A DNA stretch of 55,384 nt from positions 1-55,384 of the forward strand of contig JASFYR010000020.1 in NCBI GenBank assembly GCA_045047115.1. Reading direction: 5' to 3'. The position numbers and the translations under genes are program-made. The notes below the pieces were generated by a model. That model had not been told where the DNA came from. It saw nothing but the letters and a program-made list of their open reading frames with translations, and did no database searches. Positions 35,878-55,384 of this stretch are shown here, one piece after another (positions within the stretch are counted from its first letter, which is position 1; each line of letters begins with the position of its first letter). The stretch is from Sulfurospirillum sp. Lineage in GTDB: Bacteria; Campylobacterota; Campylobacteria; Campylobacterales; Sulfurospirillaceae.

Positions 35878-35964
35878 AATAATCACAAAAAAATTATCTT
35901 TCTTATGCCAAACTTAAGAAAAACTCTTTAATTTTCTATAGTTTTGTTACTTTTTTACCCACCA

Positions 35965-36048
35965 AAGTGAATATTCATTCGATAAATTAATATTCACTTG
36001 TATTTTAAGTAAAATTATGCTTTAATTTTACTAATAAATAACTATTCA
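35965..36048 (+). promoter_or_regulatory. hydA promoter with candidate operator repeats
   Basis: Perfect IR AAGTGAATATT-N13-AATATTCACTT (35965-35999); TTGTAT-17-TTTAAT with extended TG; TAAAT-N4-ATTCA at 36035-36048. Confidence 0.6.
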
Positions 36049-36092
36049 TTCATTTATGGATAAATATAAACTCAGTTATTAAGGAGAGTTGA

Positions 36093-37247: not shown

Positions 37248-37251
37248 ATAA

Positions 37252-38973
37252 ATGTCAAAAAGAGTAGTAGTTGATCCAATCACAAGGATAGAAGGACATT
37301 TAAGAATAGAAGTGGTTGTGGATGATAATAATGTAGTACAAGAGGCATATTCATCTTCGACCTTATGGAGAGGAATAGAGACAATCCTAAAGGGAAGAGA
37401 TCCAAGAGATGCCGGTTTTTTTACTCAGAGGATTTGTGGTGTTTGCACCTACTCTCATTATAGAGCAGGAATTGAAGCAGTTGAAAATGCACTTGGTATC
37501 AATCCTCCTTTAAATGCAAAATTGGTTAAAACTTTAATGAATATAGCCTTGTATCTGCATGATCACACCGTGCATTTTTACCATCTTCACGGACTTGACT
37601 GGGTAGATGTTGTATCTGCTTTGAAGGCTGATCCTCACAAAGCAGCGCAAGAGGCATTTAAGTATAGCTCAAACCCTATGGCGTGTGGTGCAGATGATTT
37701 GGTGGAGACACTAAAAAGAGTAGGCGACTTTGTAAAAAAGGGAAATCTCGGACCATTTGCAAATGCTTACTGGGGGAATAAAACCTATAAATTTACACCT
37801 GAGCAAAATTTGATAGCTCTTTCACACTATCTAAAAGCTTTGGAGATGCAGAGAATTGCTGCTCAAATGATGGCTATATTTGGCGGAAAACAGCCACATC
37901 CTCAAAGTTTGAGTGTTGGTGGAGTGACTTGTATAATGGACTTGCAAGATCCTGCAAGACTCGGTGAGTTTTTAACGAAATTTAAAGAGATGGCTGATTT
38001 TGTGAATCGTGCATACTATCCTGATCTCGTAATGGCTGCCAAAGCATATGCTACAGAGCCTAGTGTAAATGCAGGCTTGGGAACGGCAAATCTCATGACA
38101 TCAAAAGAATTTTTACTAAATGCAGATGAGTATCTATTTGATAGTGGTATTATTTTAAATGGTGATATATCCAAGGTCTATGAGATAAACGAAGATAAGA
38201 TCACGGAAGAGGCGACACACTCATGGTATGTTGATAATGAACCTCTTCACCCTTATAACGGAAAGACAAATCCAAACTATACCGGATTTCAAGATGCTCA
38301 AACAGTAAACGGAAAAGGTGAGTTGGAGACAACTAAAGTTTTAAAAGAGAATGAAAAATACTCTTGGATAAAATCACCCAGATATGATGGCAAACCTATG
38401 CAGGTTGGTCCACTTTCAAATATAGTTATAAACTATGCAAAAGGAAACAAGAGAGTTACAAAGGTTGTTGACCAGTTCTTAAAAGATACAGGACTTCCTC
38501 TAAAGGCTGTATTTTCCACTCTTGGACGAACTGCTGCCAGAATGCTTGAAGCCAAGACTATAGCAGACAATGGGCTAGAAACTTTTAACTCTTTGATCCA
38601 AAACCTAAAAGTTGATGACTCAACATATACTACATATCAAATAGATAACAACAAAGAGTACAAGGGTAGATTTATGGGGAATGCACCAAGAGGAATCCTT
38701 AGCCACTGGGTCAGAATAAAAAATGGTGTTATAGAGAATTGGCAAGCAGTCGTACCATCAACATGGAATGCCGGTCCAAGAGATGCCAAAGGAGTCAGGG
38801 GACCTTATGAAGAATCTTTGATTGGTCTTAAAATTGCAGATTTATCTCAACCGCTTGAAATCATAAGAGTCATACACTCTTTTGATCCGTGTATCGCCTG
38901 CGCTGTACACTTGATGGATACAAAAGGCAATGAGTTAAGTGAGTACAAAGTAGATTTAAGCTGTTTTTGCTAA
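37252..38973 (+). CDS. hydB: Uptake [NiFe]-hydrogenase large subunit
   Basis: RICGVC and DPCIACAVH, followed by a cleavable C-terminal extension. Confidence 0.96.
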   Translation: MSKRVVVDPITRIEGHLRIEVVVDDNNVVQEAYSSSTLWRGIETILKGRDPRDAGFFTQRICGVCTYSHYRAGIEAVENALGINPPLNAKLVKTLMNIALYLHDHTVHFYHLHGLDWVDVVSALKADPHKAAQEAFKYSSNPMACGADDLVETLKRVGDFVKKGNLGPFANAYWGNKTYKFTPEQNLIALSHYLKALEMQRIAAQMMAIFGGKQPHPQSLSVGGVTCIMDLQDPARLGEFLTKFKEMADFVNRAYYPDLVMAAKAYATEPSVNAGLGTANLMTSKEFLLNADEYLFDSGIILNGDISKVYEINEDKITEEATHSWYVDNEPLHPYNGKTNPNYTGFQDAQTVNGKGELETTKVLKENEKYSWIKSPRYDGKPMQVGPLSNIVINYAKGNKRVTKVVDQFLKDTGLPLKAVFSTLGRTAARMLEAKTIADNGLETFNSLIQNLKVDDSTYTTYQIDNNKEYKGRFMGNAPRGILSHWVRIKNGVIENWQAVVPSTWNAGPRDAKGVRGPYEESLIGLKIADLSQPLEIIRVIHSFDPCIACAVHLMDTKGNELSEYKVDLSCFC

Positions 38974-38982
38974 GGAGTAGTT

Positions 38983-39675
38983 ATGGGAAAGTTTAAAGAT
39001 TTATTGGTGAAGCGACATACTGAATTCTCACCTTTTTACAGATGGCACCATTGGATAAGATTTTTTTCAATCATGTTTTTGATTGTTAGTGGATTTTATA
39101 TAGCTTATCCGTTTTTGTCACCTGAAGTAGATCCGAATCCTACTGGATTTTTATATGCGAAGGGTAGAACATTTCATGAAATTGCAGGTTTTATTATGAT
39201 CTCTATGTTTATAGGAAAAATGTACTATTTTTTCTTTGTAAAATCAGATAGAAATGAGATGAGATCTTTTAAGGATCTCTTTAGTGTTAAAAAATGGATG
39301 AAGCAAACGGGATATTATCTTTTAGTAAGCAAACATCCTGTTTTGAGTGGTGCATACAATGTTATACAACTGGCTGCATATCTTGCTTTATATATCATGC
39401 TTACACTCTTGATATTAACAGGGCTAATTTTGTATATACACAATTACCATGATAGTTTTTTATCGTTTTTAACCACTCCGCTTATCTCTCTTGAGGTGAT
39501 GTTCGGAGGATTGGCCAGTGTTAGAGAAATTCACCATATATTAACTTGGGGAATAATTATATTTATCATAGCGCATGTCTATATGGCAGTTTTTAATGCT
39601 GTATACGGAAAAGAAGGAACAATAGATGCGATAGTCAGTGGATACAAGTGGGAAATTCCGGAGTCTGAAAAATAA
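38983..39675 (+). CDS. hydC: Ni/Fe-hydrogenase cytochrome b subunit
   Basis: RWHHWIR, FHEIAG, IHHILTW and AHVYMA heme-ligand segments. Confidence 0.93.
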   Translation: MGKFKDLLVKRHTEFSPFYRWHHWIRFFSIMFLIVSGFYIAYPFLSPEVDPNPTGFLYAKGRTFHEIAGFIMISMFIGKMYYFFFVKSDRNEMRSFKDLFSVKKWMKQTGYYLLVSKHPVLSGAYNVIQLAAYLALYIMLTLLILTGLILYIHNYHDSFLSFLTTPLISLEVMFGGLASVREIHHILTWGIIIFIIAHVYMAVFNAVYGKEGTIDAIVSGYKWEIPESEK

Positions 39676-39677
39676 TT

Positions 39678-40217
39678 ATGAAAATTTTAGTACTGGGGAT
39701 TGGCAATGTGATGTTCTCTGATGAGGGTATCGGAGTTCATCTTTGCCACTTTTTGGAAGAAAAATATGAGTTTTATTCGCAAAAGCATACTATTGATTTT
39801 ATAGATGGTGGGACATTGGCTCAAAGGCTAATTCCTATCATCTCCAAGTATGATTATCTTATAGTTCTTGATTGTGTGGATGCGAATGACGGAGTAATTG
39901 GGGATGTATATTTTTTTGATTTCGAAAATATCCCCGAATCCATCTCTTTTCAGGGAAGTGCACATGAAGTTGAAATGCTTCAGACTCTAAATATGATGGA
40001 TATGATTGGCGATAGACCACCTACCAAGATTATAGGAATCATACCTGAGATTGTGAGCGAGACGACACTCTGCTTGACAAAAGCTGTTGTTGAAGGTAGT
40101 GAATTGATGCAAAAGATATTTCTTAAACATATAAAAGAGCTTGATGTTGAGTACAGGGTGAAAAAAGATATAGATATACAAAGCGTAGCAGACAAAGCCT
40201 GCGCAAAATATAGGTAA
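39678..40217 (+). CDS. hydD: Hydrogenase maturation protease
   Basis: LGIGNVMFSDEGIG, DGGT, SAHE. Confidence 0.93.
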   Translation: MKILVLGIGNVMFSDEGIGVHLCHFLEEKYEFYSQKHTIDFIDGGTLAQRLIPIISKYDYLIVLDCVDANDGVIGDVYFFDFENIPESISFQGSAHEVEMLQTLNMMDMIGDRPPTKIIGIIPEIVSETTLCLTKAVVEGSELMQKIFLKHIKELDVEYRVKKDIDIQSVADKACAKYR

Positions 40218-40221: not shown

Positions 40222-41913
40222 ATGATTTTAGCATATGAGTTTGAATATGTATCAAAAAATTTGGTATTAGAAAGTTTTTTAAGAGTTATCAGCGAAGAGT
40301 TTGGCGCAAAATACAAAATTTGCAAAGAAAAAAATATAACCATACTTTATATAGATGAAGAGGAGGAAAGACAGCATGAGTTTGCTGATTTTCTCTCTTC
40401 AAGTCTTCCCGTATCTGTTTTTTTAAAATCTTCTAATGCTAAAGTAACAGATAGCATTAAAGGCAAAGAGTTAGATTTTTCAGATACTGCCATCTCTTTG
40501 CCTTTCACCAGAAGAGCGATAGAATTAGCAAAAGATGAAAATTCATTTTTTTACAGATCTCCATTTGTTCCAAATGAAGTTGGTTTCTCGAAGATTTTTC
40601 AAAGGATTTCTTTAAGCTTAGAAAATGCCAACGGACTTATGGTTGTAAACAACTCTGAAGGATACAATGATATATATAAGAGTATAGCAAATTCAATTAA
40701 AAATGGAGAGAAAGTAAAGATAAAAACTCCAAATGGTAATTTTGTATTTTTTAGAGTGAAAAAGGGTGCTTTTAAAGATATAGAGAGTTTTGAGATTATT
40801 CCAACAGATCTGTCTTTGGTGCAAAAGATGGTAAATCTAAGAGAAAACGAGATACAAGCCCTGGCTTTTTTGGAAAAACCTCTCATAAGAGCAAAAGTAA
40901 ATATGGTTTTTGAGACATTTGATATATTGCCCTCATCAAGAGTTAAAATTTCGATGCCAAAGACACCTATGTTGCAATTTATCTGCGAAGAGTTGTATAA
41001 AAACGGTGTAGAGTTTATAGCTAAAAGCAGTGATGATGTGGAGTATTCACACTTTTTGAGTTGCGATATAGATATTCCAAAAATTGCAAGTATGGAGGTT
41101 TCAATCCTCGAAAACGGTGAGATTTTTATCTTAAATGCAGATGGATTCAGCACACAAGAGTCAAAAAAAGGGCTAGAGAATTTAAAAGTTCCATCAATCA
41201 GACAATTTGTCTCAATTTTAAAAGAGAGAGAGCTTTTTAATGACAAAGCGAGCTGTTTCTATTTCAGTAAAAAATATGATGATGCCATAATGTACCATGA
41301 TGAAGAAAAATATAGTGTTCTCTCATTGGTTGAATTCCCAACTTTTTCTACTGTTAGAGAGCTTTTTAACCATATAAAAAAAGAGGATGAGAGTGGAGAA
41401 AAACTCATAGAGAACTATAAAAAAACATATCCCCAGCTTTACAAATCTATACAGAGGGTAAAGATTCCTAAAAAACTCTCAAATAATCTTTTCAACACAT
41501 TAAGATTTGTCTCCATAATCGTTGGATTTTCAGATGATTTTAAAAAGGCAGCCGATACTTTGATAGAGAAAGCGGAGGATTTTGGCGGACAAAAGGGAGT
41601 AAGGATAGACTTTAGGCTAAAAGATGAAAAAAAGATAAACTCCAAGTTCAACCCCTATCGTCTCTTGCGAAGTGCGATGAGTTTCAAGCTTGCAGGAGCA
41701 GATGATATGACTATGAGTTTTGGCATACTGGAGAGCTTTTCTTACTTTATATCAGACATTGCAGATTCTCACAAAGAGACATTAGGAAGCAATAAAATAA
41801 CATTGGGCGGCTCACTATTTGGTTATCCCCTCATAGCGGAGTTGGTTGCAAAAAATCTTCTACCTAATCATAAGATATATTTTAACCAAGAATTACCAAT
41901 CGATAATCTATAA
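40222..41913 (+). CDS. hydE: HydE hydrogenase accessory protein (epsilonproteobacterial, HypF-C-like)
   Basis: Position after hydD; KGVRIDF, SAMSFKLAG and LGGSLF segments. Confidence 0.75.
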   Translation: MILAYEFEYVSKNLVLESFLRVISEEFGAKYKICKEKNITILYIDEEEERQHEFADFLSSSLPVSVFLKSSNAKVTDSIKGKELDFSDTAISLPFTRRAIELAKDENSFFYRSPFVPNEVGFSKIFQRISLSLENANGLMVVNNSEGYNDIYKSIANSIKNGEKVKIKTPNGNFVFFRVKKGAFKDIESFEIIPTDLSLVQKMVNLRENEIQALAFLEKPLIRAKVNMVFETFDILPSSRVKISMPKTPMLQFICEELYKNGVEFIAKSSDDVEYSHFLSCDIDIPKIASMEVSILENGEIFILNADGFSTQESKKGLENLKVPSIRQFVSILKERELFNDKASCFYFSKKYDDAIMYHDEEKYSVLSLVEFPTFSTVRELFNHIKKEDESGEKLIENYKKTYPQLYKSIQRVKIPKKLSNNLFNTLRFVSIIVGFSDDFKKAADTLIEKAEDFGGQKGVRIDFRLKDEKKINSKFNPYRLLRSAMSFKLAGADDMTMSFGILESFSYFISDIADSHKETLGSNKITLGGSLFGYPLIAELVAKNLLPNHKIYFNQELPIDNL

Positions 41914-41919
41914 ATTTTT

Positions 41920-41928
41920 TGATATAAT
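41920..41928 (+). promoter_or_regulatory. Extended -10 promoter for the dab operon
   Basis: TGATATAAT 32 bp upstream of the dabB start. Confidence 0.5.
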
Positions 41929-41960
41929 AAAACTCTAAAAATAAAAAAGATGGGGATTTT

Positions 41961-43640
41961 TTGGAAAAGTTTATAACTGTTTTTACACTTATCTCTTTTT
42001 TTACACCTCTCATCTCGGCTATTTTGGTTTTGGGAACTTTTAAAAAGATAGATTATAATGTCTATAAGATATCGGTGTTTTTCTCTTTTGTAGCAGTTTT
42101 GCTCTCTTTTACATCTTTGGTTCTCTTTTTTTGGGCAGAGATTTCTTCTGTTACTCTCTTTTCGCAAACTCTCTTTTCTCTTTATATTACACCACTTAGC
42201 ATAGTCGTCACTTTTTTTGTTTCACTTGTCTCCTTGGTTATACATCTATATTCGATAAAGTATATGTATGATGACGAGGGATATGTCAGATACTTTATAC
42301 TTTTGGATTTGATGATATTTGTCATATTTGGGCTCTTAAGTGTAGGCAATATCATCTTAATCGCATCTTTTTGGCACATGATGGGAGTTGTGTTGTATTT
42401 TCTACTTATACATAATTTTAGAAAAAAACAGACATACAGATATGGATTTTATACACTTTTTACACATCTTTTGGCTGATATTCCATTTTTGATAGCTCTT
42501 TATCTTATCTATAACTATTATAATACCACAGATTTAAAACTCTTTTTAGATACTGTTTCTACACATAAACAACTATATTTTGATGGTACAGATGTGAGCA
42601 TCGCTTCTGTTATAGCACTCTTTATCATGTTTGCTGCCATCATAAAATCAGCTCAATTTCCTTTTCATATTTGGCTTCCGTTTACACTGGAAGGTCCAAA
42701 TCCCATATCTGCTCTTATGCATGCGGGTATAGTAAATGCGGGTGCTTTCATAGCCAACAGATTTGCACCGCTTTTTATCCATGGCGAGATAGCTCTTCAT
42801 ATTGTTCTTATCACAGGCTTCATAACTGCGATACTGGGCTCCGCCTTGATGCTTATGCAAAATGATATAAAAAAAGCATTGGCCTACTCAACAGTCGGAC
42901 AGATGGGATATATGATGCTTGAAATAGGGGCAGGAGCTTTTGCTCTGGCTATATATCATATGATGGTACATGGTATCTTCAAGGCTTCTTTGTTTTTGGG
43001 CTCAGGCGGTGCTATACATGAAGCAAGAAATAAGTCAAATATTGATAAACAATCTGTATTTGACATATTTTTTTCAAAAACAAAATATAAAAAACCGGGC
43101 TTTTTTGAATACCTTGTGTTTGTGTTTGTAATTCCTGCTGCTGTAGCAATTTTTATCTTTTCACCACTTATCAAAGAGAATTCATTTGACAGTACTATAC
43201 TTTTTTATCTTTTTGCATGGGTTGGTGGGGCACAGGTTGTATATACTATGTATCATAGCCATAAAAGATTCAAAGCTCTGTTTTTCACAACTATAGGTTT
43301 TGCTCTGGCTCTCTTTGTTTATGTTGAGGCTGAACACTTTTTTGGAGGAATTTTGTATCCGAACAGAGAGCTTTTTAAAGCACTGTTTAGCTCAGCATCC
43401 TGGAGTAGTGCTCTGTTTTTTATGATTTATGGTGTTGTTTTTACTGTAGTTGTCCTGGTCTGGATTTTTGCATATCAAAAACTAGTCGATAAAAGTCCTT
43501 TTTTTTCACGATTTGGAGACCTGTATGATTTTATTTACAGAGTATTTGGCAGGGAGTTTTATATCCTTGATTTTTGCACATCCATATCAAAAAAGATGGT
43601 TGATTTTGCCGGATTTATAAACTTTAGGATGAAGTACTGA
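41961..43640 (+). CDS. dabB: DabB / NuoL-like membrane subunit of an inorganic-carbon pump
   Basis: KSAQFPFHIWLP, SALMHAGIVNAG, DIKKALAYSTVGQMG; lies upstream of a DUF2309 gene. Confidence 0.85.
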   Translation: MEKFITVFTLISFFTPLISAILVLGTFKKIDYNVYKISVFFSFVAVLLSFTSLVLFFWAEISSVTLFSQTLFSLYITPLSIVVTFFVSLVSLVIHLYSIKYMYDDEGYVRYFILLDLMIFVIFGLLSVGNIILIASFWHMMGVVLYFLLIHNFRKKQTYRYGFYTLFTHLLADIPFLIALYLIYNYYNTTDLKLFLDTVSTHKQLYFDGTDVSIASVIALFIMFAAIIKSAQFPFHIWLPFTLEGPNPISALMHAGIVNAGAFIANRFAPLFIHGEIALHIVLITGFITAILGSALMLMQNDIKKALAYSTVGQMGYMMLEIGAGAFALAIYHMMVHGIFKASLFLGSGGAIHEARNKSNIDKQSVFDIFFSKTKYKKPGFFEYLVFVFVIPAAVAIFIFSPLIKENSFDSTILFYLFAWVGGAQVVYTMYHSHKRFKALFFTTIGFALALFVYVEAEHFFGGILYPNRELFKALFSSASWSSALFFMIYGVVFTVVVLVWIFAYQKLVDKSPFFSRFGDLYDFIYRVFGREFYILDFCTSISKKMVDFAGFINFRMKY

Positions 43641-44380
43641 TGAATCTGCTATATACTACGGCTGTTTTGTTTTTATTGCCTCTGTTTCCACTGAGCTTGA
43701 TAACAAACAGAGTTTTGTCTGCTCTTAATCCAAGACTTTTTTCAACCACTCTGCTGGTACTGTTTATTGTCGGCAACATACTATTAAATTATGCGGATAT
43801 AGAGTCAAAAACCATCCTTTTTTTGGCGATTTTTACTATCTTGTTTTATAGTTTTAGACTACTTGGAGTAAAGAGTTTAAAAAATTTTATACTCTATCTC
43901 TATCCCATTGTCTCCTCTATTTCGCTTGTTTGGTATATGGTTGGTGGTGATGTTTTAGAGATTTTAGCTCTCAAAACTCCTGTTTTGGTACTGTTTTTGA
44001 CCCTTTTTACATTTTTGAGCGGACAATTTAGTGTTATTCATCAAAAAAGTATAAGTGGGCTAGGAGGAGTTATGCCAAGATTTTCCATACTTTTTATACT
44101 CTCTTTGCTTGGGCTCTCTTCATCTTTATTTTTTTGGGGCTATGAGCTTTTAGAGTTGGAATTTTCCAAGCTTCCTCTTTTTTATACCATTTTGCTTATC
44201 ATATCCTGGATTTTCATAAATTGGGGCAGTATAAAACTGTTTGAATGGCTTATATATGGAGAGTATAAACAAGATACTACATATGAAGACTTGAATGCCT
44301 GGCAGACTCTAGCTCTCTCTTTGATACTCTTTGGCAGTGCCGTGTTTTTTATCTTTTATGGCGCGAAAGGTCTGGTATGA
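43640..44380 (+). CDS. Polytopic membrane protein, partial antiporter-like; probable extra DAB subunit
   Basis: About 8 hydrophobic segments; SGLGGVMPRFS resembles NuoM/MrpD GGL...MP; overlaps both neighbours. Confidence 0.65.
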   Translation: MNLLYTTAVLFLLPLFPLSLITNRVLSALNPRLFSTTLLVLFIVGNILLNYADIESKTILFLAIFTILFYSFRLLGVKSLKNFILYLYPIVSSISLVWYMVGGDVLEILALKTPVLVLFLTLFTFLSGQFSVIHQKSISGLGGVMPRFSILFILSLLGLSSSLFFWGYELLELEFSKLPLFYTILLIISWIFINWGSIKLFEWLIYGEYKQDTTYEDLNAWQTLALSLILFGSAVFFIFYGAKGLV

Positions 44381-47300
44381 TTGTATCAAATGCAGAGATT
44401 TTATATATAAATTCGCTAATAGAAAATGCAGTTGATCTTTTTCATAACTTTTGGCCTATGACCTCTTTTATACACCACAATCCACTACATGGTTTTGAAG
44501 ATATACACTTTGAAAAAGCTATTTGCAAGGCAAGGACTTACTTTCACAATAGAAAATTTTTATCAAGGCAAGAGTATCAGAATTTTTATCAAGATGGAAA
44601 GATTAAGCCTGAAAAAATCAAATCAGAGATTGAGGATTATTGCAAAAAGAGAGGTTTGAGTCAGAGTTATGAGAAACTCTTCTTTCATATATTTGTCAAT
44701 GTTAAACACTCAGACACAAATCCAAAAATCCAGAATCCAAAAATAAAACTAATAAAAGAGAAACTAGGCAATACCTGTGCCTCTCGTCGTCACCAAAAAC
44801 TAGGTGTTAATTTTGGTTTTTGCGATGCCCTGGATTTACTCTATGGCAGTGAGCTTTGCGAGCATATAAACGAGAGACTAAATAAGATGGCTATGAGACA
44901 TCTTGATGAAGGTCAGGCAACTTGGCTTCCTGCAGATAAAGATAAGGGTATGTTTCTCTCATGGAGGAGACTGGTTACAAAAGATAGTCTCTTTTTCGAT
45001 AAATCTCTTCAACTCTGTAGAGTCTTAACTCAAAGTGACAAGCCCGAAGATGTGATATATTGGGTTTTAAATGAGTTGAAGATACCAAAAGATGAATGGG
45101 AAGATTTTTTTGTGTTACAATTTGGAAAATTGCATGGATGGACCGGTTTTCTACGCTGGAGAAGTACAAATAAAGACTATCTTCATCAGAGAAAATGCCC
45201 TGCGTACCTAGAGGATTTTTTAGCTATAAGACTCTACTTTCTCTACATGTATCTTCTAAAAACTGAAAAAAAGATAGGATATTTTCCTGATTTTGAGAGA
45301 CTAAAGCTTGAACTTTCCAAAAAAGAGAGTTTTTTAAGGATCGAGTACAACAGTAGGAAAATAGTGCCCAAATTTATAGACAGGTATGAGCAGGCACTGC
45401 AAAGCAACACTCTAGAGGATATATATGAAGAGTATATGATCTCTTACAATGAAAACTATAAACAAAAGAGTGCCCAAATTTTATATGCAGTTTTAAAAGA
45501 CTTTGGTGAAGATTTTAGTGATTATGTTGAGCTTTCAGACAATCTAAGAGAGTTTGAAGAGTACGAGGGTTTTATATGGCTTAAAGCGATGGAGGAGGGG
45601 TATATAGAAGATTTGATGAGAGAGATGTTGCCGAATATACAAAACCAAAGATTGTGCAATCCCAATGCCCAACTCTTCTTTTGTATAGATGTAAGAAGTG
45701 AAAGTATCCGAAGAGAGATAGAGAAGAGTGGAAATTTTGAGACTTATGGTATAGGCGGATTTTTTGGCATACCTCTGAAGCTTATAGATATGTCCAAAAA
45801 ATATGAATCCAATCTCTGTCCGGCTGTTATCAAACCTAAAAATATAGTCTATAAACTTGAAGAAGGAAAAGAGGCACAGAGTATAAAATTAAAAAAAGCA
45901 CTAAAGCATATATATCATGACCTGAAATACAACACAATGTCACCATATATAACGGTTGAAACCATAGGACTTCTGTTTGGTTTTGATTTTTATGGAAAGA
46001 CACTTTTGCCAAACTTTTATATGCCCCTAAGAGAAAAGCTTTTCAGCAAGGAGTATAGAGGCAAACTTTTGATCGACAAATACAACAAAAAAGAGATTTT
46101 GATCAAGATTGACTCTTTGCAAAAAGAGATTGCTAAAATCGCCATAAAAGAGAATTTTGCCTTAGATTGTAGCGGCTTAGATGGTGAATTGGAAGAATTT
46201 TTACAAATTGCCACCTCACACGAAGATACACTCAAGCTTCAAAAAGGCAGAATTGAGCCACTAACCAGCTTGGCACTTCGTCTCAATCTTATGCATTATG
46301 AAGAGATAAGACTTTTAAAATTGCTTCAAAATGAGTATCAAATCTCCTATTTTTATAAAACTAAACAAATAGAGCTGCTATCAAAAGTAGGATTTACCTT
46401 CCAAGAACAGCTCTTTTATGCCAAAAATGCACTAAAGCTTACAGGTTTGAGTGAAAATTTTGCTCCTGTTGTTATTTTTTGCGGACACGAAAGCAAATCT
46501 GAAAACAACCCTTATGAGTCTGCACTTGATTGCGGGGCATGTGGTGGAAAAAGCAGCGATACAAATGCGAGAGTTTTGAGCTATATCTTAAACAAACAAG
46601 AGATACAAGATGCACTAAAGCCTGACATCAGCATTCCTAAAGGTACGATTTTTGTAAGTGCTCTACACAATACAGTAACAGATAAGGTTCAAATCTATAC
46701 CGGTAATATTCCAAAAAACAGACTTCAAGAGATAGATGAGATTCAAGCAAAACTGTATATTGCCAGTGAAAATTCTGCACTACAAAGAGCTAAAAAACTA
46801 CCTTTTGCCAAAGAACTAAAGAGAAAAAAGGCTTTGGCATTTATGCGAAAAAATTCACAAGACTGGTCACAAACAAGACCGGAGTGGGGTTTGGCAACAA
46901 ACCACTCTTTTGTCATAGCACCTAGAGATATAAGCAGAGGTATAGAGTTTGAAAATAGAGTCTTTTTGCACTCTTATGACTACACTAAAGACAAAACCGG
47001 ATACTATCTGGAAATAATTCTCTCTGCACCACTTGTAATTGGTGAGTGGATAAATATGGAGCACTTTTTCTCATCTTTGGATAACCGCTCTTTTGGAAGC
47101 GAAAGCAAGGTTTACCATAATGTGGTAGGCAGATTCGGTGTAATAAGTGGCAATATTAGTGATTTAAGAACAGGTTTGGCAGCTCAAAGTGTCCATAAAA
47201 GAGGTAAAATATATCATGAACCCATAAGATTACTGACCTTTATAGATGCACCTTTTGGCAAATACAGAGTTAGCATAGACAAGATAAAAAAAGTTTCACA

Positions 47301-47418
47301 ACTGGTCTATAACGAATGGATAAAAATGGTATTTATAGACAGAGTTGAGGAAGCGTTTTTCTACTATCATGGAAATTCGCAAAGATGGAAAAAAATAGAG
47401 TTTAAGGATATAAAATGA
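44377..47418 (+). CDS. dabA: DabA (DUF2309) beta-carbonic-anhydrase-like subunit
   Basis: WPMTSFIHHNPLHGFE, FCIDVRSE, CGHES, DCGACGG, RPEWGL, FLHSYD, YHEPIRL. Confidence 0.92.
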   Translation: MIVSNAEILYINSLIENAVDLFHNFWPMTSFIHHNPLHGFEDIHFEKAICKARTYFHNRKFLSRQEYQNFYQDGKIKPEKIKSEIEDYCKKRGLSQSYEKLFFHIFVNVKHSDTNPKIQNPKIKLIKEKLGNTCASRRHQKLGVNFGFCDALDLLYGSELCEHINERLNKMAMRHLDEGQATWLPADKDKGMFLSWRRLVTKDSLFFDKSLQLCRVLTQSDKPEDVIYWVLNELKIPKDEWEDFFVLQFGKLHGWTGFLRWRSTNKDYLHQRKCPAYLEDFLAIRLYFLYMYLLKTEKKIGYFPDFERLKLELSKKESFLRIEYNSRKIVPKFIDRYEQALQSNTLEDIYEEYMISYNENYKQKSAQILYAVLKDFGEDFSDYVELSDNLREFEEYEGFIWLKAMEEGYIEDLMREMLPNIQNQRLCNPNAQLFFCIDVRSESIRREIEKSGNFETYGIGGFFGIPLKLIDMSKKYESNLCPAVIKPKNIVYKLEEGKEAQSIKLKKALKHIYHDLKYNTMSPYITVETIGLLFGFDFYGKTLLPNFYMPLREKLFSKEYRGKLLIDKYNKKEILIKIDSLQKEIAKIAIKENFALDCSGLDGELEEFLQIATSHEDTLKLQKGRIEPLTSLALRLNLMHYEEIRLLKLLQNEYQISYFYKTKQIELLSKVGFTFQEQLFYAKNALKLTGLSENFAPVVIFCGHESKSENNPYESALDCGACGGKSSDTNARVLSYILNKQEIQDALKPDISIPKGTIFVSALHNTVTDKVQIYTGNIPKNRLQEIDEIQAKLYIASENSALQRAKKLPFAKELKRKKALAFMRKNSQDWSQTRPEWGLATNHSFVIAPRDISRGIEFENRVFLHSYDYTKDKTGYYLEIILSAPLVIGEWINMEHFFSSLDNRSFGSESKVYHNVVGRFGVISGNISDLRTGLAAQSVHKRGKIYHEPIRLLTFIDAPFGKYRVSIDKIKKVSQLVYNEWIKMVFIDRVEEAFFYYHGNSQRWKKIEFKDIK

Positions 47419-47726
47419 TAATGCAAAAGATGAAAAAAGTGGAGATAATAACAGAGGGATCGAACCTTGAGATGTTAAAGAGGATACTGGGCAAGATCGA
47501 TATACCGGGTTACACTATATTTCACAACCTTGAGGGCATGGGCAAACATGGCTTTCACGAAGGGCATCTGCTCTTCAATGACGAAGATGCCCTGGTGATG
47601 CTTATGAGTGTTGTCGAGCCTGGGCAAGCTGAAGATATAGCTCTTGGACTGGAGCCTTTTTTGCAAAAACACTCCGGTGCTATATTTTTAAGTGATACTA
47701 TCAGAGCAAAGGCACAAAAAAATTGA
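47415..47726 (+). CDS. P-II-like (SbtB-like) signalling protein
   Basis: MKKVEIITEG...GYTI...GMG.HG...SGAIFLSD P-II-type pattern; ATGA overlap with dabA. Confidence 0.8.
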   Translation: MIMQKMKKVEIITEGSNLEMLKRILGKIDIPGYTIFHNLEGMGKHGFHEGHLLFNDEDALVMLMSVVEPGQAEDIALGLEPFLQKHSGAIFLSDTIRAKAQKN

Positions 47727-49234
47727 GTGAGATAGTTTTATGCACATTTAATGCAAGATATTTACATACTTCCATAGGCCTTAGATATATCTATGCAAAT
47801 TTAAAAGAGTTGCAAAATAGAGCAAAGATAATCGAATTTGTCATAAATAGCAGTGTAGAAGATGCGGTAGAGCAAGTACTCAAAGAGAGACCCAAAATAG
47901 TAGGGATTGGAGCATACATATGGAATGCCATAGAGGTCGGAAACTTTATAAATATACTTAAAAAAGTATCCCCAAAGACTATAATCATTACAGGTGGACC
48001 AGAGGCCAGTTACTTTCCTCATAGAGTCGATTTTAGTGGCTCGGACTACTTTATACAGGGCGAGGGAGATGTGGCTTTTTATGAGTTGTGTAACAATATA
48101 TTTAAAAAAAATCCTCCAAAAAACAGAGTCATTAGAGCTGAAATGGTTGATTTGAGTAAAATCGAACTACCGTATCAATTTTACAGCGATGAAGATGTAG
48201 CAAATAGGTATATATATGTTGAAGCCAGCAGAGGCTGTCCTTATTCGTGTGAATTTTGCCTCTCTTCTCTGGATAAAAAAGTGAGAAATATAGAGATAGA
48301 GAGGTTTTTAAAAGAACTTCAGATTTTGTGGGACAGGGGAGTGCGGAGTTTTAAATTTATAGACAGGACTTTTAACCAAGGCATAGAGAGAGCAAACAGA
48401 TTTATGGATTTTTTTCTTTCAAAAGAACCACCATATTTTATACATTTTGAAGTAGTACCCGATAACTTTCCAAGCTCACTCAAAGAGAGAATAAAACTAT
48501 TTCCATCTGCTTCTTTACAGCTTGAGGTGGGTATCCAGACGCTAGATTCTGCGATTTCACAAAATATATATAGAAAATTAAACATAGAAAAGATCCAAAA
48601 AAATTTAAACTTTTTGGAGAACGAAACCAAAGCACATCTGCATGTAGATCTCATAGTTGGTCTGCCGGGCGAGAGTTTAGAGGGATTTGGTAGAAATCTC
48701 GATAGACTCTATGCCATGACAAAATGTGAAATCCAAATCGGAATCTTAAAAAAACTCTCAGGCACCACCATAAACAGACATGATGAGATTTATGGTATGA
48801 AATATAGTGACAAACCACCTTATGACATCTTGCAAAATGATCTTATATCTTATGAAATGATGCAAAAAATGAAGCGGTTTGCAAGGTTTTGGGATTTGGT
48901 TTACAATAGTGGAAATTTTAAAAAGAGTGTTACATATCTCTTTAAAGAGGGCAGGGTTTATGATGGATTTCTTAGTTTCAGTGAGTGGATATATGTCCAA
49001 ACTCTCTCAACATGGAAGATTTCACTCGATAGACTTGCAAAGTTGCTCTATGATTATATCTTGTATATGCAGTACACAAGCAAAGAGGAGCTTAAAGAGG
49101 TGATGATAGAGGATTTGCTTGTTGTAAAAACAAGAAAACTCCCCAAGTTTTTAAGATTTGATGAGCAAAATATAAAATCAAATCTGAACAATCACCCTCG
49201 CTTCAACAAAAGACAGCTGAAACACTCTGTATAG
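47723..49234 (+). CDS. B12-binding-domain radical SAM protein
   Basis: GGPEAS, QGEGD, RGCPYSCEFC, DRTFN, DLIVGLPGE. Confidence 0.88.
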   Translation: MSEIVLCTFNARYLHTSIGLRYIYANLKELQNRAKIIEFVINSSVEDAVEQVLKERPKIVGIGAYIWNAIEVGNFINILKKVSPKTIIITGGPEASYFPHRVDFSGSDYFIQGEGDVAFYELCNNIFKKNPPKNRVIRAEMVDLSKIELPYQFYSDEDVANRYIYVEASRGCPYSCEFCLSSLDKKVRNIEIERFLKELQILWDRGVRSFKFIDRTFNQGIERANRFMDFFLSKEPPYFIHFEVVPDNFPSSLKERIKLFPSASLQLEVGIQTLDSAISQNIYRKLNIEKIQKNLNFLENETKAHLHVDLIVGLPGESLEGFGRNLDRLYAMTKCEIQIGILKKLSGTTINRHDEIYGMKYSDKPPYDILQNDLISYEMMQKMKRFARFWDLVYNSGNFKKSVTYLFKEGRVYDGFLSFSEWIYVQTLSTWKISLDRLAKLLYDYILYMQYTSKEELKEVMIEDLLVVKTRKLPKFLRFDEQNIKSNLNNHPRFNKRQLKHSV

Positions 49235-49245
49235 TTAGGTAGGTT

Positions 49246-51471
49246 ATGAAAAAAAGATATAAATACAAGATAGAGGGCATTGTCCAAGGAGTAGGTTTTC
49301 GCCCGTTTATCTATCAAATCGCCCACGCCAATGCTTTAAAAGGGTATGTGCTAAACAACTCTTTGGGAGTTGAGTTGGAGGTGGAGGGCAGCACAGGGAG
49401 TTTGAGCAGTTTTGAGAGAGCTCTACATATAGAGCTTCCCCCACTTGCCAGAATTGACCATATAGACAAAGAGGAGTTGGATTTTTTTGGATTTAAAGAG
49501 TTTTCTATCAAAAAAAGCAATACCCAGGAGAGCAAACACACTCTTGTCTCTGCCGATATGTCCATTTGTGATGATTGTCTAGCAGAACTTATGGATAAAA
49601 ATAACTTTAGATATAACTATTTTTTCATAAATTGCACAAATTGCGGTCCTAGATACTCTATCATCAAAACGGTTCCTTATGATAGAGTAAATACATCTAT
49701 GAATAGTTTCGCCATGTGTGAAAAATGTGAAAATGAATACACAGACCCTATGAACAGAAGATACCATGCCCAGCCTATAAGCTGTTCAAAATGCGGACCT
49801 GAACTTTTTTTAAAAAATACAAAAGGCAAATTGCTTGCAAAAAATACAAAAGCTTTGTGTTTGCTCTCAAATTTGATACAAGATGGAAATATCGTAGCCA
49901 TAAAAGGGATGGGCGGATTTCATTTGGTTTGCGATGCCTCAAATGACAAAACAGTTAAAGATTTGAGACAAAGAAAAATGAGACCGACAAAACCCTTTGC
50001 TGTTATGTTTAAAAATATAGACGAGATAAAAAAGAGTTGCACTGTATCAAATGCCCAGGAAAAAGCTATCACTTCACAACAAAGACCGATAGTGCTTGTC
50101 AAAAAAGCCAAAAATGAACTTTTCATCAGTACTTTAGTCGCCCCTTATATCGATAGACTGGGAGTTTTTTTGCCCTATACACCTCTACATGTACTACTCT
50201 TGGAAAAATTGGACAATCCTATAGTAGCTACCAGTGCAAACAGATCCGCAGAGCCTATCATAACAAATGAAAAAGATCTAAGAGAGTCACTTGGGGATGT
50301 GATTGACTACTATCTTGATTATAACAGGGATATTATAAATGCAAGTGATGACAGTGTCTTGCAGATTGTCGGAGATAAACAGTTGATGATGAGAGCTTCT
50401 CGGGGTTTTACTCCTATGAGTTTTCGATATATTAGTGCCTGTACAAGAGATGTCCTGGCAGTCGGTGCCCATCAAAAAAACTCACTTGCACTGTATATAG
50501 ACAATCAAATCATACTGAGTCCATATATCGGTGATTTGGACAGCGTGAAGAGTTGTGATTTTTTCCTAAAGACTCTAGAGACTTTTAAGAGATTTTACAA
50601 TTTTGAGCCAAAAGTGATAGTTTGCGATATGCATCCAAACTATTTTACAACAAAATGGGCAAAAAAACAGAATCTGAAAATCCATCAAGTACAACATCAT
50701 TATGCACATATACTCTCTTGTATGTTTGAGCATAAACTGGATAAAAAAGTCTTGGGTGTTGCGTGGGACGGTACGGGATATGGGGATGACGGAACTATCT
50801 GGGGTGGTGAATTTTTACTCTGTGATAGAGACTCATATAAAAGAGTAGCACATTTTGAGCCTTTTTTACTTTTGGGTGGAGATGCGAGCATAAAAGATAT
50901 AAAAAGAGTGGCACTTTCGATGATTTTTGATATCGCAGAAGACGAGAGACTTGAAAAATTTGAAAAACTGACAAATCTTTTTAATAAAAATGAACTCTTG
51001 GTTTTAAAGCAGATGCATAAAAAAAGAATCAATGCCATAGAGTGCACCTCTGTTGGCAGAATTTTTGACGCAGTAGCTGTTTTTAGCGGGATTTGTAGTG
51101 AAGTGAGTTATGATGGTGAAAGCGGACTTATAATAGAGAGCCTGTATGACGAGAATATAAAAGAGAGTTACGAATTTTATCTTGAAGGCGAGCTTATAAG
51201 ATATAAGCACATTTTTTCTCAAATGCTAAAAGACAAAGAGCCAAAGCTTATAGCCACAAAGTTTATAAATGCTCTGGTTGATATATTTTTTAAGATTTCA
51301 GATAGTTATGATTTTGACATTGCACTAGGAGGCGGGGTATTTCAAAATCGAACGATTTTGGAAAAAATTCTCAAACAATCAAAGAGTAAAAAGATATATT
51401 TTCCACAAATGACACCCATAAACGACAGTGGTATCGCATTGGGACAACTATATGGATACTTGAACGATTAG
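49246..51471 (+). CDS. hypF: Carbamoyltransferase HypF
   Basis: GIVQGVGFRPF, CDDC/CTNC and CEKC/CSKC zinc fingers, QHHYAH, DGTGYG, GGVFQN. Confidence 0.96.
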   Translation: MKKRYKYKIEGIVQGVGFRPFIYQIAHANALKGYVLNNSLGVELEVEGSTGSLSSFERALHIELPPLARIDHIDKEELDFFGFKEFSIKKSNTQESKHTLVSADMSICDDCLAELMDKNNFRYNYFFINCTNCGPRYSIIKTVPYDRVNTSMNSFAMCEKCENEYTDPMNRRYHAQPISCSKCGPELFLKNTKGKLLAKNTKALCLLSNLIQDGNIVAIKGMGGFHLVCDASNDKTVKDLRQRKMRPTKPFAVMFKNIDEIKKSCTVSNAQEKAITSQQRPIVLVKKAKNELFISTLVAPYIDRLGVFLPYTPLHVLLLEKLDNPIVATSANRSAEPIITNEKDLRESLGDVIDYYLDYNRDIINASDDSVLQIVGDKQLMMRASRGFTPMSFRYISACTRDVLAVGAHQKNSLALYIDNQIILSPYIGDLDSVKSCDFFLKTLETFKRFYNFEPKVIVCDMHPNYFTTKWAKKQNLKIHQVQHHYAHILSCMFEHKLDKKVLGVAWDGTGYGDDGTIWGGEFLLCDRDSYKRVAHFEPFLLLGGDASIKDIKRVALSMIFDIAEDERLEKFEKLTNLFNKNELLVLKQMHKKRINAIECTSVGRIFDAVAVFSGICSEVSYDGESGLIIESLYDENIKESYEFYLEGELIRYKHIFSQMLKDKEPKLIATKFINALVDIFFKISDSYDFDIALGGGVFQNRTILEKILKQSKSKKIYFPQMTPINDSGIALGQLYGYLND

Positions 51472-51508: not shown

Positions 51509-52087
51509 ATGCAAACGAGTAAAATTTCAGAGATAGCAGATCAAATAAAAGCATTGGAGCTTCAACTCGAAAATGAACTTCAAAAAAGAAGAGAAGAGTA
51601 TTACTGCGATATAGGAAAGTTTTCAGTATTTAAAGATGATGTGATAAAAAGGCATAGAAAAGATGTTGAAAATGTCTTTAAATATCTTGCAAATGCACCA
51701 ATCCTATATGTTATCACCGCTCCGATTATCTGGTCTGTCATCTTTCCTGCTATGTTTTTGGATCTCTTTGTATCTCTCTACCAGGCTGTATGCTTCCCTG
51801 TTTACAAAATAAAAAAGGTAAAAAGAGGCGACTATATATCTATAGATAGAGGCAAACTTAAATATCTAAATATAATCGAAAAGATAAACTGCACATACTG
51901 TAGCTATTTTAATGGACTTTTAGGTTTTATAGTAGAGGTAGCATCACGCACGGAACAATTTTGGTGTCCTATAAAACATGCAAGAAAGATAAACTTTCTT
52001 CACTCAAAATACCAAAACTTTTTCGACTATGGAGATAGCAAAAATTTTAGAAAAGAGTTGAAAAACTTAAGAAAAGAGTTAGATTAA
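51509..52087 (+). CDS. Hypothetical membrane protein with a Cys/His motif
   Basis: Coiled-coil N-terminus, hydrophobic segment, NCTYCSYFNG and EQFWCPIKH. Confidence 0.7.
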   Translation: MQTSKISEIADQIKALELQLENELQKRREEYYCDIGKFSVFKDDVIKRHRKDVENVFKYLANAPILYVITAPIIWSVIFPAMFLDLFVSLYQAVCFPVYKIKKVKRGDYISIDRGKLKYLNIIEKINCTYCSYFNGLLGFIVEVASRTEQFWCPIKHARKINFLHSKYQNFFDYGDSKNFRKELKNLRKELD

Positions 52088-52121: not shown

Positions 52122-52143
52122 AAGCTCTACATATAGAGCTTTT
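52122..52143. terminator. Candidate bidirectional terminator
   Basis: AAGCTCTA-cata-TAGAGCTT between convergent genes, with T-rich tails on both strands. Confidence 0.45.
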
Positions 52144-52869: not shown

Positions 52870-52886
52870 TTCATTAAGGAAAAAAT

Positions 52887-53639
52887 ATGTGTGCAGATTG
52901 CGGATGCAGTATAACAGATCACGAAACAGAGCATCACCATCATCATAGCCATAACCATGAGCATTTACAAGATAACCCCCAGCTCAATGACAAAAAGACT
53001 ATAGAGGTGATAACAAAGATTTTAGATAAAAATGACCACGAAGCAGCTCACAACAGAGCTCATTTTGAGGCACATGGGGTTTTAGGTATAAATCTTATGA
53101 GTAGCCCAGGAAGCGGAAAGACAACACTTTTAGAGTATTTAACTGATGTTGCTGAGTTTAAATTTGGAGTCATAGAGGGAGATTTAGAGACAAATAAAGA
53201 TGCGGATCGCCTCAAAAGTAAAGGTATAGAAGCTCATCAGATCCAAACCGGCTCAGCTTGTCATTTGGATGCATTTATGGTGCATAAAGCACTTCATCAT
53301 ATAGATTTGGACAAGATTGATGTGTGCTTTGTAGAGAATGTCGGCAACCTTGTCTGTCCTGCCAGCTACGATGTAGGAACACATCTAAACATAGTCTTGG
53401 TCAGCATCCCTGAGGGTGAAGACAAAATAGCAAAATACCCTGTTATGTTTAGAAAAGCCGATCTTATACTCTTCACCAAAACAGACCTTTTACGATATTT
53501 CAAATACGACATAGAGGCAGAGAAAAATAGTGCAAGAGCCCTAAAACCAAATGTCGATATCCTGGAGATAAATATAAATGACAAAGAGAGCATAAAAAGG
53601 GTGGCAAATTGGATAAAGTTTAAAAGGGAGATGAGATAA
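52887..53639 (+). CDS. hypB: Hydrogenase nickel-insertion GTPase HypB
   Basis: CADCGC, His-rich stretch, SSPGSGKTT, CHLDA, ENVGNLVCP. Confidence 0.97.
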   Translation: MCADCGCSITDHETEHHHHHSHNHEHLQDNPQLNDKKTIEVITKILDKNDHEAAHNRAHFEAHGVLGINLMSSPGSGKTTLLEYLTDVAEFKFGVIEGDLETNKDADRLKSKGIEAHQIQTGSACHLDAFMVHKALHHIDLDKIDVCFVENVGNLVCPASYDVGTHLNIVLVSIPEGEDKIAKYPVMFRKADLILFTKTDLLRYFKYDIEAEKNSARALKPNVDILEININDKESIKRVANWIKFKREMR

Positions 53640-53911
53640 TGTGTCTTTCCATACCAAGTAAAGTAGTAGCCATAGATGAGAACAATATGGCAACAGTAGA
53701 TACCATGGGAGTCAAAAGAGAAGTGACACTTGACCTTATAGGCGAAAAGGTAGATATAGGCGATTACGTACTTATACATGTAGGTTTTGCTATGAATAAA
53801 ATCAGCCAGGAAGAAGCATTAGAGAGTATAAAAGTCTATGATGAGATTGTGAAGAAGATGAAAAGCGAAGAGATAGACCCGGCAGAGGGAGATGCAAACT
53901 ATGCAACTTGA
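53639..53911 (+). CDS. hypC: Hydrogenase chaperone HypC
   Basis: MCLSIP and GDYVLIHVGFAM. Confidence 0.97.
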   Translation: MCLSIPSKVVAIDENNMATVDTMGVKREVTLDLIGEKVDIGDYVLIHVGFAMNKISQEEALESIKVYDEIVKKMKSEEIDPAEGDANYAT

Positions 53912-55010
53912 TTTGATAAATGGTTTTAGAAATCCCGAGCACATAAAAGCACTCTCGAAAGCTATAAAAAAAGAGTGCAAATCCAAGATAAATGTCATGG
54001 AGGTTTGTGGAGGTCACACTCATACTATTATGAAATTTGGTTTACCTCAAATCCTGCCTGAACTCATAGAGTTTATACATGGCCCAGGGTGTCCCGTATG
54101 CATCATGCCTAAAGAGAGGATAGACCATGCCATAGCACTAGCAAGCATGGACGATGCAATCCTGGCAACTCTAGGAGACATGATACGAGTTCCCGGGAGC
54201 AAAACATCTTTGCAAAAACTAAGAGCAGAGGGCAGAGACATAAGGTCTCTATACTCTCCTTTGGATGTTTTAAAAATAGCAAAAGAGAATCCTGATAAAA
54301 AGGTGATATTTTTTGCCATAGGGTTTGAGACTACAACTCCTATGACTGCCTCTGTTTTGCAAGAGTGTATAAAACAGGACATAAAAAATCTATATTTCCA
54401 CATCAACCATGTAACAGTTCCCGAGCCAATTGACGCAATAATGTCAGGAGGAGACTCTCGTATAAACGCATTTTTAGGACCTTCGCATGTAAGCGTTATA
54501 ACAGGATACGGTATATTTGAACCTATATCCAAAAGATACAATACTCCCATAGTCGTAGCAGGTTTTGAGCCAGTCGATGTGATGGAGGGTATCTTGATGT
54601 TAGTCAGGCAGTTTAACAATGGAATTTGTGAAGCACAGAACCAATACACCAGAGCCGTATCCAAAGAGGGAAACATAAATGCCCAAAATCTCATAGATAA
54701 GTATATGGATAGAAGAGATCACTTTAAATGGAGAGGTTTGGGAGATATAAAAAACAGTGCACTAAAACTTAGAGGTGAGTATGCAAAGTATGATGCAGAA
54801 GTCGTCTTTGATGAGATTTTATCAAAAGAACCGATAGACGACCATAAACTCTGTATCTGTGGAGATATACTCAAAGGAAATGCCAAACCGTTTGACTGTA
54901 AGGTCTTTGGCAAAGCATGCACACCAAACTCTCCTATGGGCTCTTGTATGGTTTCTAGTGAGGGTGCCTGCGCAGCATACTATAAGTATGGTCAATTTAT
55001 AAAGGAATAA
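53901..55010 (+). CDS. hypD: Hydrogenase maturation protein HypD
   Basis: MEVCGGHTH, GPGCPVC, GFETT, CMVSSEGACAA. Start at 53901 or 53892. Confidence 0.97.
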   Translation: MQLDLINGFRNPEHIKALSKAIKKECKSKINVMEVCGGHTHTIMKFGLPQILPELIEFIHGPGCPVCIMPKERIDHAIALASMDDAILATLGDMIRVPGSKTSLQKLRAEGRDIRSLYSPLDVLKIAKENPDKKVIFFAIGFETTTPMTASVLQECIKQDIKNLYFHINHVTVPEPIDAIMSGGDSRINAFLGPSHVSVITGYGIFEPISKRYNTPIVVAGFEPVDVMEGILMLVRQFNNGICEAQNQYTRAVSKEGNINAQNLIDKYMDRRDHFKWRGLGDIKNSALKLRGEYAKYDAEVVFDEILSKEPIDDHKLCICGDILKGNAKPFDCKVFGKACTPNSPMGSCMVSSEGACAAYYKYGQFIKE

Positions 55011-55013
55011 GAT

Positions 55014-55384
55014 ATGCATATACCTGATGGTTATCTCTCACCCACTACAGTAGTGGCTACCTATGCTGTTGTTGCCCCATTGTGGGTCTATGGTTTTAAA
55101 AAATTAAAAGCCTCTCTAAACGAAGAGACTCTGCCTCTCATCGGAGCATTGAGTGCTATGAGTTTTATAATTATGATGTTTAACATACCAATACCCGGAG
55201 GTACAAGTGGTCACGCAGTAGGTGCAGCACTCATCGCTATACTCTTTAACCCCTGGATTGGTTTTGTATCGGTCTCTTTGGTTCTTTTGATTCAAGCTGT
55301 TGTTTTTGGAGACGGAGGAATATCCACATTGGCGGCAAATGCACTCTCTATGGCATTTGTTGGCTCTTTTGTGGGGTATTATAG
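55014..55384 (+). CDS. cbiM: NikM/CbiM ECF-type nickel/cobalt transporter substrate subunit, partial
   Basis: Manual translation MHIPDGYLSP...NIPIPGGTSGHAVG...FGDGG; runs off the window. Confidence 0.9.
   Translation, partial: MHIPDGYLSPTTVVATYAVVAPLWVYGFKKLKASLNEETLPLIGALSAMSFIIMMFNIPIPGGTSGHAVGAALIAILFNPWIGFVSVSLVLLIQAVVFGDGGISTLAANALSMAFVGSFVGYY

Follow-up and report, generated by a model that had tools for sequence, protein, structure and literature searches.

The closest described relatives of the system treated here are the DAB1 complexes (DabA-DabB-DabC) of Thermocrinis albus and Halothiobacillus neapolitanus (PMC13684180; bioRxiv 10.1101/476713; here and below the cited papers are used as far as their accessible parts go). 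Proton flow through DabB remodels the buried zinc site of DabA, leading to one-directional hydration of CO2 (PMC13144422, PMC13684180), and DabC is a required but non-catalytic structural subunit in the solved relatives (PMC13684180). Transporters of dissolved inorganic carbon are commonly co-located with carboxylase genes (PMC13147460, PMC10880623), and the carboxysome-associated CPII is a bicarbonate-binding P-II-like protein (bioRxiv 10.1101/762807). Here we analyze a dabB-dabC-dabA cassette of Sulfurospirillum sp. (GenBank assembly GCA_045047115.1) that lies in a [NiFe]-hydrogenase gene cluster, between hydE and the maturation gene hypF, on a stretch of 55,384 bp (contig JASFYR010000020.1, hereafter the window). 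It is proposed that this DAB1 complex probably makes cytoplasmic bicarbonate for the whole of a predicted reductive tricarboxylic acid (rTCA) cycle autotroph, and that its place between hydE and hypF probably stems from one old insertion and not from any special service to HypF.

The genome under study is designated G000 and the window is its contig C20; the assembly comprises 2.14 Mb in 41 contigs and is rated 100% complete. G-numbers denote genomes, L-numbers the loci or contigs compared and C-numbers the contigs of G000. The genus sample consists of G000 and 13 congeners, and 8 of these 14 genomes are dab-bearing.

A DAB1 complex between hydE and hypF

The cassette and its two borders contain the following features.

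40222..41913 (+): hydE, which closes hydABCDE and borders the insertion on its upstream side; no Pfam match; the name is presumed from its position after hydD
41920..41928 (+): extended -10 element TGATATAAT at a conserved position, a predicted promoter for the dab genes
41952..41956 (+): Shine-Dalgarno-like GGGGA ahead of the TTG start of dabB; relatives have a similar purine run
41961..43640 (+): dabB, NuoL-like membrane subunit, 559 amino acids (aa), TTG start; PF00361/PF00662; match to 9rd0_B, E 7.7e-37
43640..44380 (+): dabC, third DAB1 membrane subunit, 246 aa; profile match and natural fusions
44377..47418 (+): dabA, long DabA1-type buried beta-carbonic-anhydrase subunit, 1013 aa; PF10070, E 1.8e-215
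47415..47726 (+): P-II-like gene travelling with dabA; PF00543; PDB 5d4n/5d4l, E 3e-22
47723..49234 (+): B12-binding radical SAM/DUF4080 gene, a passenger; PF02310, PF04055 and PF13311
49246..51471 (+): hypF, carbamoyltransferase, single copy, downstream border; TIGR00143

By the open reading frame (ORF) calls, dabB and dabC overlap by 1 bp and the three following junctions (dabC/dabA, dabA/P-II-like, P-II-like/radical SAM) by 4 bp each; the hydE-dabB spacer is 47 bp and the gap between the radical SAM gene and hypF is 11 bp. Gene order, overlaps and the 11-bp gap are exactly as given in an earlier reading of this DNA (the original prediction). Pfam and NCBIfam back every gene label except those of hydE and of dabC, which the original prediction had entered as a membrane ORF; neither of the two was matched.

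DabA matches the solved DabA2 (E 2.8e-89). It is of the long type and shares 36% identity, across 1030 columns, with a Halothiobacillus protein of 1046 aa. Its zinc site (C436, D438, R440, H704, C719) aligns with that of DabA2, in agreement with the earlier statement that the Cys/Asp/His/Cys ligands (C436/D438/H704/C719) are kept, and the finger glutamate E528 is present. The motifs NNPYESALDCGACGG, GI(A/G)GFFG and DWxxxRPEWGL stand at residues 710-724, 458-464 and 829-839, respectively; all three occur in 7/7 congeners, with CIDVR exact in six of the seven. DabB residues K229, S250, H254, K304, S310, H333, H337, K341 and R356 are invariant in 11/11 aligned homologues. Mapping to the published numbering (PMC13144422, PMC13684180) was by constant offsets, without direct alignment: eight residues (the K229-K341 set) are shifted by a constant 6 against the DabB2 residues that were mutated in PMC13144422, and H254/H333/H337/K341/H353/R356 correspond to T. 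albus H229/H308/H312/K316/H328/R331 at a constant offset of 25.

DabC has about eight hydrophobic segments; no Pfam match above cut-off was found in 11/11 homologues, and a PDB sequence search, which bears on the half-NuoM fold expected of a DAB1 DabC, gave no match. A DabC profile finds its counterpart in the 227 C-terminal residues of a 790-aa DabB fusion (probability 96.4%, E 1.3e-9), and dabB and dabC are read in one frame in the close metagenomic relative L113. Natural DabB-DabC fusions are seen at L113:3-2036 and, among Aquificota, at L074:5826-8177 and L141:11434-13806.

A PF10070 protein with its zinc site and a PF00361 gene in the same apparent operon mark the locus as DAB/DAC, and the small Pfam-less membrane gene between dabB and dabA, together with the strict motifs, marks it as DAB1. 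Since G000 carries every active-site, coupling and proton-path residue of the solved DAB1 complex, dabB-dabC-dabA encode, as judged from their sequences, a DAB1 vectorial carbonic anhydrase. The intact DAB-type pump of the original prediction is thus upheld by domains, zinc site, motifs and proton-path residues alike. It is highly improbable that the mechanism departs from that of the solved DABs, as it would with the Na+ coupling proposed for MpsAB, or that the cassette can be dispensed with and is in partial decay. Such a reading could draw on DabB His139 and His169-Leu170, which in NuoL-like alignments occupy the positions of NuoL Glu144/Arg175 and of the Ile151/Arg182 reported for DabB2 (His139/Leu170 in place of the DabB2 pair; H169 itself is invariant in 11/11 homologues), and on the congeners, in 6/13 of which dabA was not found; against it, G000 has its zinc ligands, all three DAB motifs and its proton-path residues intact. 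One congener, G009, has dabB and dabC each in two pieces (L013:6220-8633), which would suggest decay, but rpoB of the same assembly is also broken and the split is therefore probably a sequence error.

Host carbon metabolism and bicarbonate routes

The host has the gene set of an rTCA autotroph, namely aclAB, oor, por, idh, fum, mdh and sucCD, with no RuBisCO found in the genome; aclB occurs in 14/14 genus genomes, and por was assigned from BLAST paralogy to oor and from gene order. The scan of 50 window ORFs turned up no RuBisCO, carboxysome or rTCA family, which bears out what was first said of the window, yet the missing rTCA genes are an effect of the contig end. On contig C6, hypE, hypA and two unrelated genes are followed by idh, mdh, fumarase, sucCD and oorDABC, and from G003 synteny we infer that C6 follows C20, the two ends being joined across about 1.75 kb, which puts idh about 15 kb from dabA. 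A second cbiM copy lies at the end of C41 and probably explains the C20-C6 assembly break. It follows a trio on C41 (35950-39431) of a ferredoxin-like gene, a gene for a 634-aa protein and an ATPase gene, which by eye, without family-scan confirmation, resembles cooF-cooS-cooC of CO dehydrogenase.

Bicarbonate users encoded in G000 include CarB and biotin carboxylase as well as an OadA/OadB-like pair beside phosphoenolpyruvate carboxykinase; carB is on another contig than dab and hypF. No beta-carbonic anhydrase (beta-CA) was found in G000 by family search, while 31/36 family genomes have one, and tblastn of the genome with two enzymes from congeners gave no match; where G003 has its 656-bp CA slot, G000 is closed mid-contig (C10). 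Neither alpha-CA nor SbtA was found in G000. The genome check proposed with the original prediction thus gives aclAB as present and beta- and alpha-CA as not found, and with an intact pump the supply of bicarbonate to carboxylases, one of the roles then suggested, is the likely job. Because no beta-CA, alpha-CA or SbtA was found, the pump is probably the main bicarbonate source of G000.

Mutual exclusivity of DAB and beta-CA was considered and is unsupported: CA is missing in 3/8 dab-bearing versus 0/4 well-resolved dab-free genomes, two of the three CA-less genomes being 85-91% complete, with G006 (63% complete) and G011 (radical SAM gene cut by a contig end, dab status open) left out of the comparison. 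Among congeners the beta-CA gene stands at differing sites (L061:9439-10086 in G003; L160-L169), and the enzymes fall into two groups by identity to that of G003, at 80-85% and 45-54%, with that of G007 at 65%; these sites and sequences suggest that beta-CA has repeatedly been moved or replaced.

Probable insertion history within the genus

Direct adjacency of hydE and hypF in 9/9 family outgroups examined, in G070 and in the congener G010 makes this junction ancestral and older than dab at the site. Within the family, hypF occurs in 31/36 genomes and dabA in 7/60, that is, in 7/13 congeners and 0/47 other family genomes. The genus DabA proteins form one clade (69-83% identity). A recent horizontal arrival of dab was rejected, given that clade and a GC content, overall and at third codon positions, that matches the neighbours. 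The dabA-P-II-radical SAM order is kept in 8/8 dab-bearing genus genomes and hydE-dabB in 5/8 (G000, G003, G005, G009, G012), the latter being broken in G002, G004 and G008; the radical SAM-hypF junction is kept in only two of the eight, G000 and G003, which are sisters in all trees. Five of eight metagenome loci could be mapped; hydE-dabB is found in L118, and in L116 a non-hyp gene comes after the radical SAM gene. The cassette lies 5 and 8 genes upstream of idh in G002 and G012, respectively, and G012 has hupSL-hydABCDE-dab after hypE. In G004, G008, G009 and G012 hypF stands behind tetR instead; the tetR gene, which in the window lies ahead of the hydrogenases (33043-33639, +), stays with hypF and not with the hydrogenase genes in these four. 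In the trees of hydE and of hypF, G005, with hydE-dab-radical SAM, falls together with G007 and G013, which are dab-free (G005 is missing from the rpoB tree, where three forks are open). From these comparisons it is likely that dab entered the hydE-hypF junction once, in this genus, and the pattern suggests a gain at the base of the genus with later losses in some lineages. The linkage is therefore not unique to this genome, hydE-dabB being genus-wide, yet it traces to one event.

These data bear directly on the interpretation of the original prediction, in which the pump is co-regulated with maturation and its bicarbonate passes via CarAB to carbamoyl phosphate and on to the cyanide ligands made by HypF. 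We consider this very unlikely. The 11-bp spacing to hypF in G000, the 4-bp overlap of the radical SAM gene and hypF in G003, the single copy of hypF, the missing beta-CA of G000 and the lack of an internal hypF promoter above background would fit it; but the junction to hypF is absent in 6/8 dab-bearing genus genomes, which speaks for a junction that is tolerated but not required, the hydE-hypF junction predates dab, carB is on another contig, and hydE and hypF are both kept in G007, G010 and G013, where dabA was not found. What would be expected of a maturation accessory did not hold, as the hypF linkage is not conserved and members of the lineage with hyd/hyp genes do not all have dab. Two carbamoyl phosphates per enzyme suffice for HypF, which is far below the pyrimidine and arginine demand, and bicarbonate is a shared diffusible pool. 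The proposed co-regulation with maturation and the supply of HypF are thus not sustained, whereas three other parts of that interpretation stand: the intact pump, the supply of carboxylases and, as probable, the co-transcription of hypF considered below.

Predicted promoter and transcription of the cassette

Among the matches listed on the + strand of 33000-55384, no TGnTATAAT occurs other than the element TGATATAAT at 41920. Genome-wide, TGnTATAAT is near chance (339 observed versus 292 expected from base composition), and a promoter scan gave 71 sites versus 71.7 in shuffles. The extended -10 reported earlier in the hydE-dabB spacer is thus present and conserved in position, although the motif alone is not rare: TGnTATAAT occurs in 4/5 genus hydE-dabB spacers, including those of G003, G009 and G012, with TATAAT only in G005, and it also precedes dabB in G148, a genome of another family, at a locus without hyd genes. 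We regard TGATATAAT as a real but unproven promoter, predicted from its conservation to belong to the dab cassette; its travelling with dab into the hyd-less locus of G148 speaks against a module co-regulated with maturation.

No terminator was found at the hydE-dabB or at the radical SAM-hypF junction, and over its final 400 bp the radical SAM gene holds only background-level promoter sites, none of them matching in G003. Given the 11-bp gap, no terminator found there and the overlap in G003, hypF is probably on the same transcript as the dab cassette in G000. Because hypF no longer stands directly after hydE, as it did ancestrally, its transcription probably starts at the dab promoter or comes from read-through, and this co-transcription is likely a by-product of the insertion.

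A further explanation is that the arrangement has been selected for H2-linked expression, with read-through from the hydABCDE promoter adding to the cassette's own promoter, so that more CO2 is pumped at times when H2 oxidation provides proton-motive force and rTCA reductant; the locus would then be a module of hydrogenotrophic autotrophy, not of maturation. This is possible, though rather unlikely. The hydE-dabB junction persists in 5/8 dab-bearing genus genomes at 40-50 bp, with no terminator found in G000, dab stayed with hupSL-hydABCDE in G012 and probably G009 while hypF stayed behind tetR, and the hyd/hyp cluster runs into the rTCA cluster. Set against this, the junction reflects a single event and is broken in G002, G004 and G008 though dab is kept, the genus often rearranges the region (tetR-hupS is broken in 4 genomes), and 36/37 examined Aquificota dabA loci have no hyd/hyp match. 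G000 also has soxB, hence another energy source, and the earlier label 'H2-powered' is not specific for the same reason.

Linkage outside the genus

Sampling beyond the genus found dabA in 1/400 evenly sampled genomes of the phylum and in 10/400 of the order, the own genome excluded. Forty-seven dabA loci outside the genus (45 distinct; 34 with at least 5 kb on both sides) were compared: 10 from Campylobacterales, L074, and 36 hand-picked for long flanks from 67 matches in the phylum of L074. The counts include kin that are not independent, and the queries were G000 proteins, so that distant hydrogenase types may escape. Only one of the 47 has any hyd/hyp match, a divergent hypB about 5 kb from dabB (L141), and hypF has no match in these loci; the synteny survey advised with the original prediction therefore lends no support to a general association of dabA with hyp genes. 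The carbon-gene neighbours of Campylobacterales dab include idh-mdh-sucCD and por (G447), sbtA and idh (G074) and beta-CA (L075), which is the pattern described in PMC13147460.

Several distant loci have dabA without a dabB match in the stretch examined (L145, L146, L147, L149 and L150, with dabA at about 8400-11350, and L123). A carB match lies about 6.5 kb off in five Aquificota loci (L145, L146, L147, L149, L150), and L154 has dabB and carB; this proximity of dab and carB is of more direct relevance to the supply of carbamoyl phosphate than the G000 locus.

P-II-like gene, radical SAM gene and neighbouring features

The P-II-like gene follows dabA in 8/8 genus loci and has a match in 30/47 distant dabA loci. 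The best PDB matches of its product, over 91 residues, are 5d4n, 5d4l and sister entries, which we take to be CPII entries, and it is a probable bicarbonate/adenylate sensor of the CPII kind. The radical SAM gene, by comparison, is present in 34/36 family genomes irrespective of dab, has no match in the 47 distant dabA loci and stands one gene after hydE in the dab-free G007 and G013. It was rejected as a subunit of the pump or of maturation, being family-wide without dab and absent from the distant loci, and is a passenger at the insertion site.

The wider context in the window is as follows.

33647..40217 (+): second [NiFe]-hydrogenase small/large pair, then hydABCD (Pfam/NCBIfam)
52887..55382 (+): hypB, hypC, hypD, then the first part of cbiM, truncated where the contig ends (Pfam/NCBIfam)

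Between hypF and hypB lie two ORFs without Pfam match. The first (51509-52087, +) encodes a Cys-rich protein of 192 aa and was otherwise seen only in G003 among the loci examined. The second (52127-52870, -) is antisense, encodes 247 aa with an N-terminal Cys pair pattern and is kept at this place in most family loci examined; by eye it resembles a transposase-like DNA-binding protein that has been domesticated, and it may regulate hyp genes. Further upstream, positions 17166-19951 hold the fragment of a Mutator-family transposase, together with an IS200-like tnpA and a tnpB gene (Cas12f1-like TNB domain).

Proposed role of the pump

In the route that we propose, by analogy with the solved relatives, DabB would conduct protons, DabA would hydrate CO2 one way and DabC would be structural, so that the proton gradient would drive the conversion of CO2 to bicarbonate in one cytoplasmic pool. 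The P-II-like protein would tune the pump to bicarbonate/adenylate status. As the main bicarbonate source, the pump would feed the OadA/OadB-type carboxylase, acetyl-CoA carboxylase and CarAB, and HypF would benefit only through the shared carbamoyl-phosphate pool. Synteny indicates that the cassette with its own promoter would have entered between hydE and hypF once, hypF becoming the last gene in G000, and that other lineages would have lost dab or broken either junction.

Several observations weigh against this proposal. A gamma-CA-like protein with three His, below the family cut-off, and a SulP protein, both encoded in G000, are possible other bicarbonate routes, and 5/8 dab-bearing genomes also carry beta-CA, so that dab is not simply a CA replacement. 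The G000 assembly is in 41 contigs, the C20-C6 join comes from the synteny of one genome, G003, and the branching order inside the genus is partly unresolved. Moreover, hydE-dabB occurs in five of the eight genomes across the depth of the genus and in the metagenome contig L118, with no terminator between the two genes, and some selection for hydrogenase-linked expression is possible.

A coupling of the pump to H2 regulation is accordingly a possibility raised by the gene order. In its fullest form the link would run both ways, H2 switching on the CO2 pump in this genus of rTCA chemolithoautotrophs and, in the CA-less G000, the pump's carbon-responsive promoter, with hypF under it, tying maturation to inorganic carbon; we hold this clearly unlikely, but if true it would be a coupling of energy supply and carbon uptake absent from the accessible parts of the DAB papers cited here. 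The genus is a pocket of DABs (8/14 genomes) in a phylum where DABs are rare, and its members, some having the junctions to hydE and hypF and others not, can readily be compared to ask whether H2 controls CO2 pumping. G000, with a DAB1 and no beta-CA, alpha-CA or SbtA found, offers a clean natural case for the supply of bicarbonate to rTCA carboxylases.

Comparison with known DAB systems

No description of a dab-hyd or dab-hyp linkage was found in the literature searched, outside which lay most subscription papers and all supplements. The word 'hydrogenase' is absent from the main text of either DAB1 paper (PMC13684180; bioRxiv 10.1101/476713) and from the main texts of PMC13147460 and PMC10880623, whose supplementary tables may list further neighbourhoods. 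The address of the locus is therefore new as far as seen, whereas the pump itself is already known, a DAB1 having been solved and DACs of rTCA Campylobacterota being on record.

With DAB1 the locus shares a three-gene make-up in which dabB and dabA flank a membrane gene without Pfam family, a 559-aa DabB, a long DabA and the exact motifs named in PMC13684180; it differs in lying in a hydrogenase cluster of a Campylobacterales genome and not beside carboxysome genes. DAB2 (DAC) of Halothiobacillus neapolitanus (PDB 9rd0, PMC13144422) has the same C/D/R/H/C zinc site, a finger glutamate, E444, that corresponds to E528 here, and the eight proton-path residues at offset 6; however, it consists of two subunits with a shorter DabA, and its DabB2 Ile151/Arg182 positions are His/Leu in G000. 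The P-II-like protein is like CPII of Thiomonas intermedia in its best PDB matches and in being encoded beside DAB, but there is no carboxysome in G000. As in the DACs of rTCA Campylobacterota and Aquificota (PMC13147460, PMC10880623), the pump occurs in an aclAB genome near an idh-mdh-fum-suc-oor cluster, although G000 is without the beta-CA that most relatives keep. The mechanism is thus expected to be ordinary, that of a textbook DAB1: a known pump at an unusual address.

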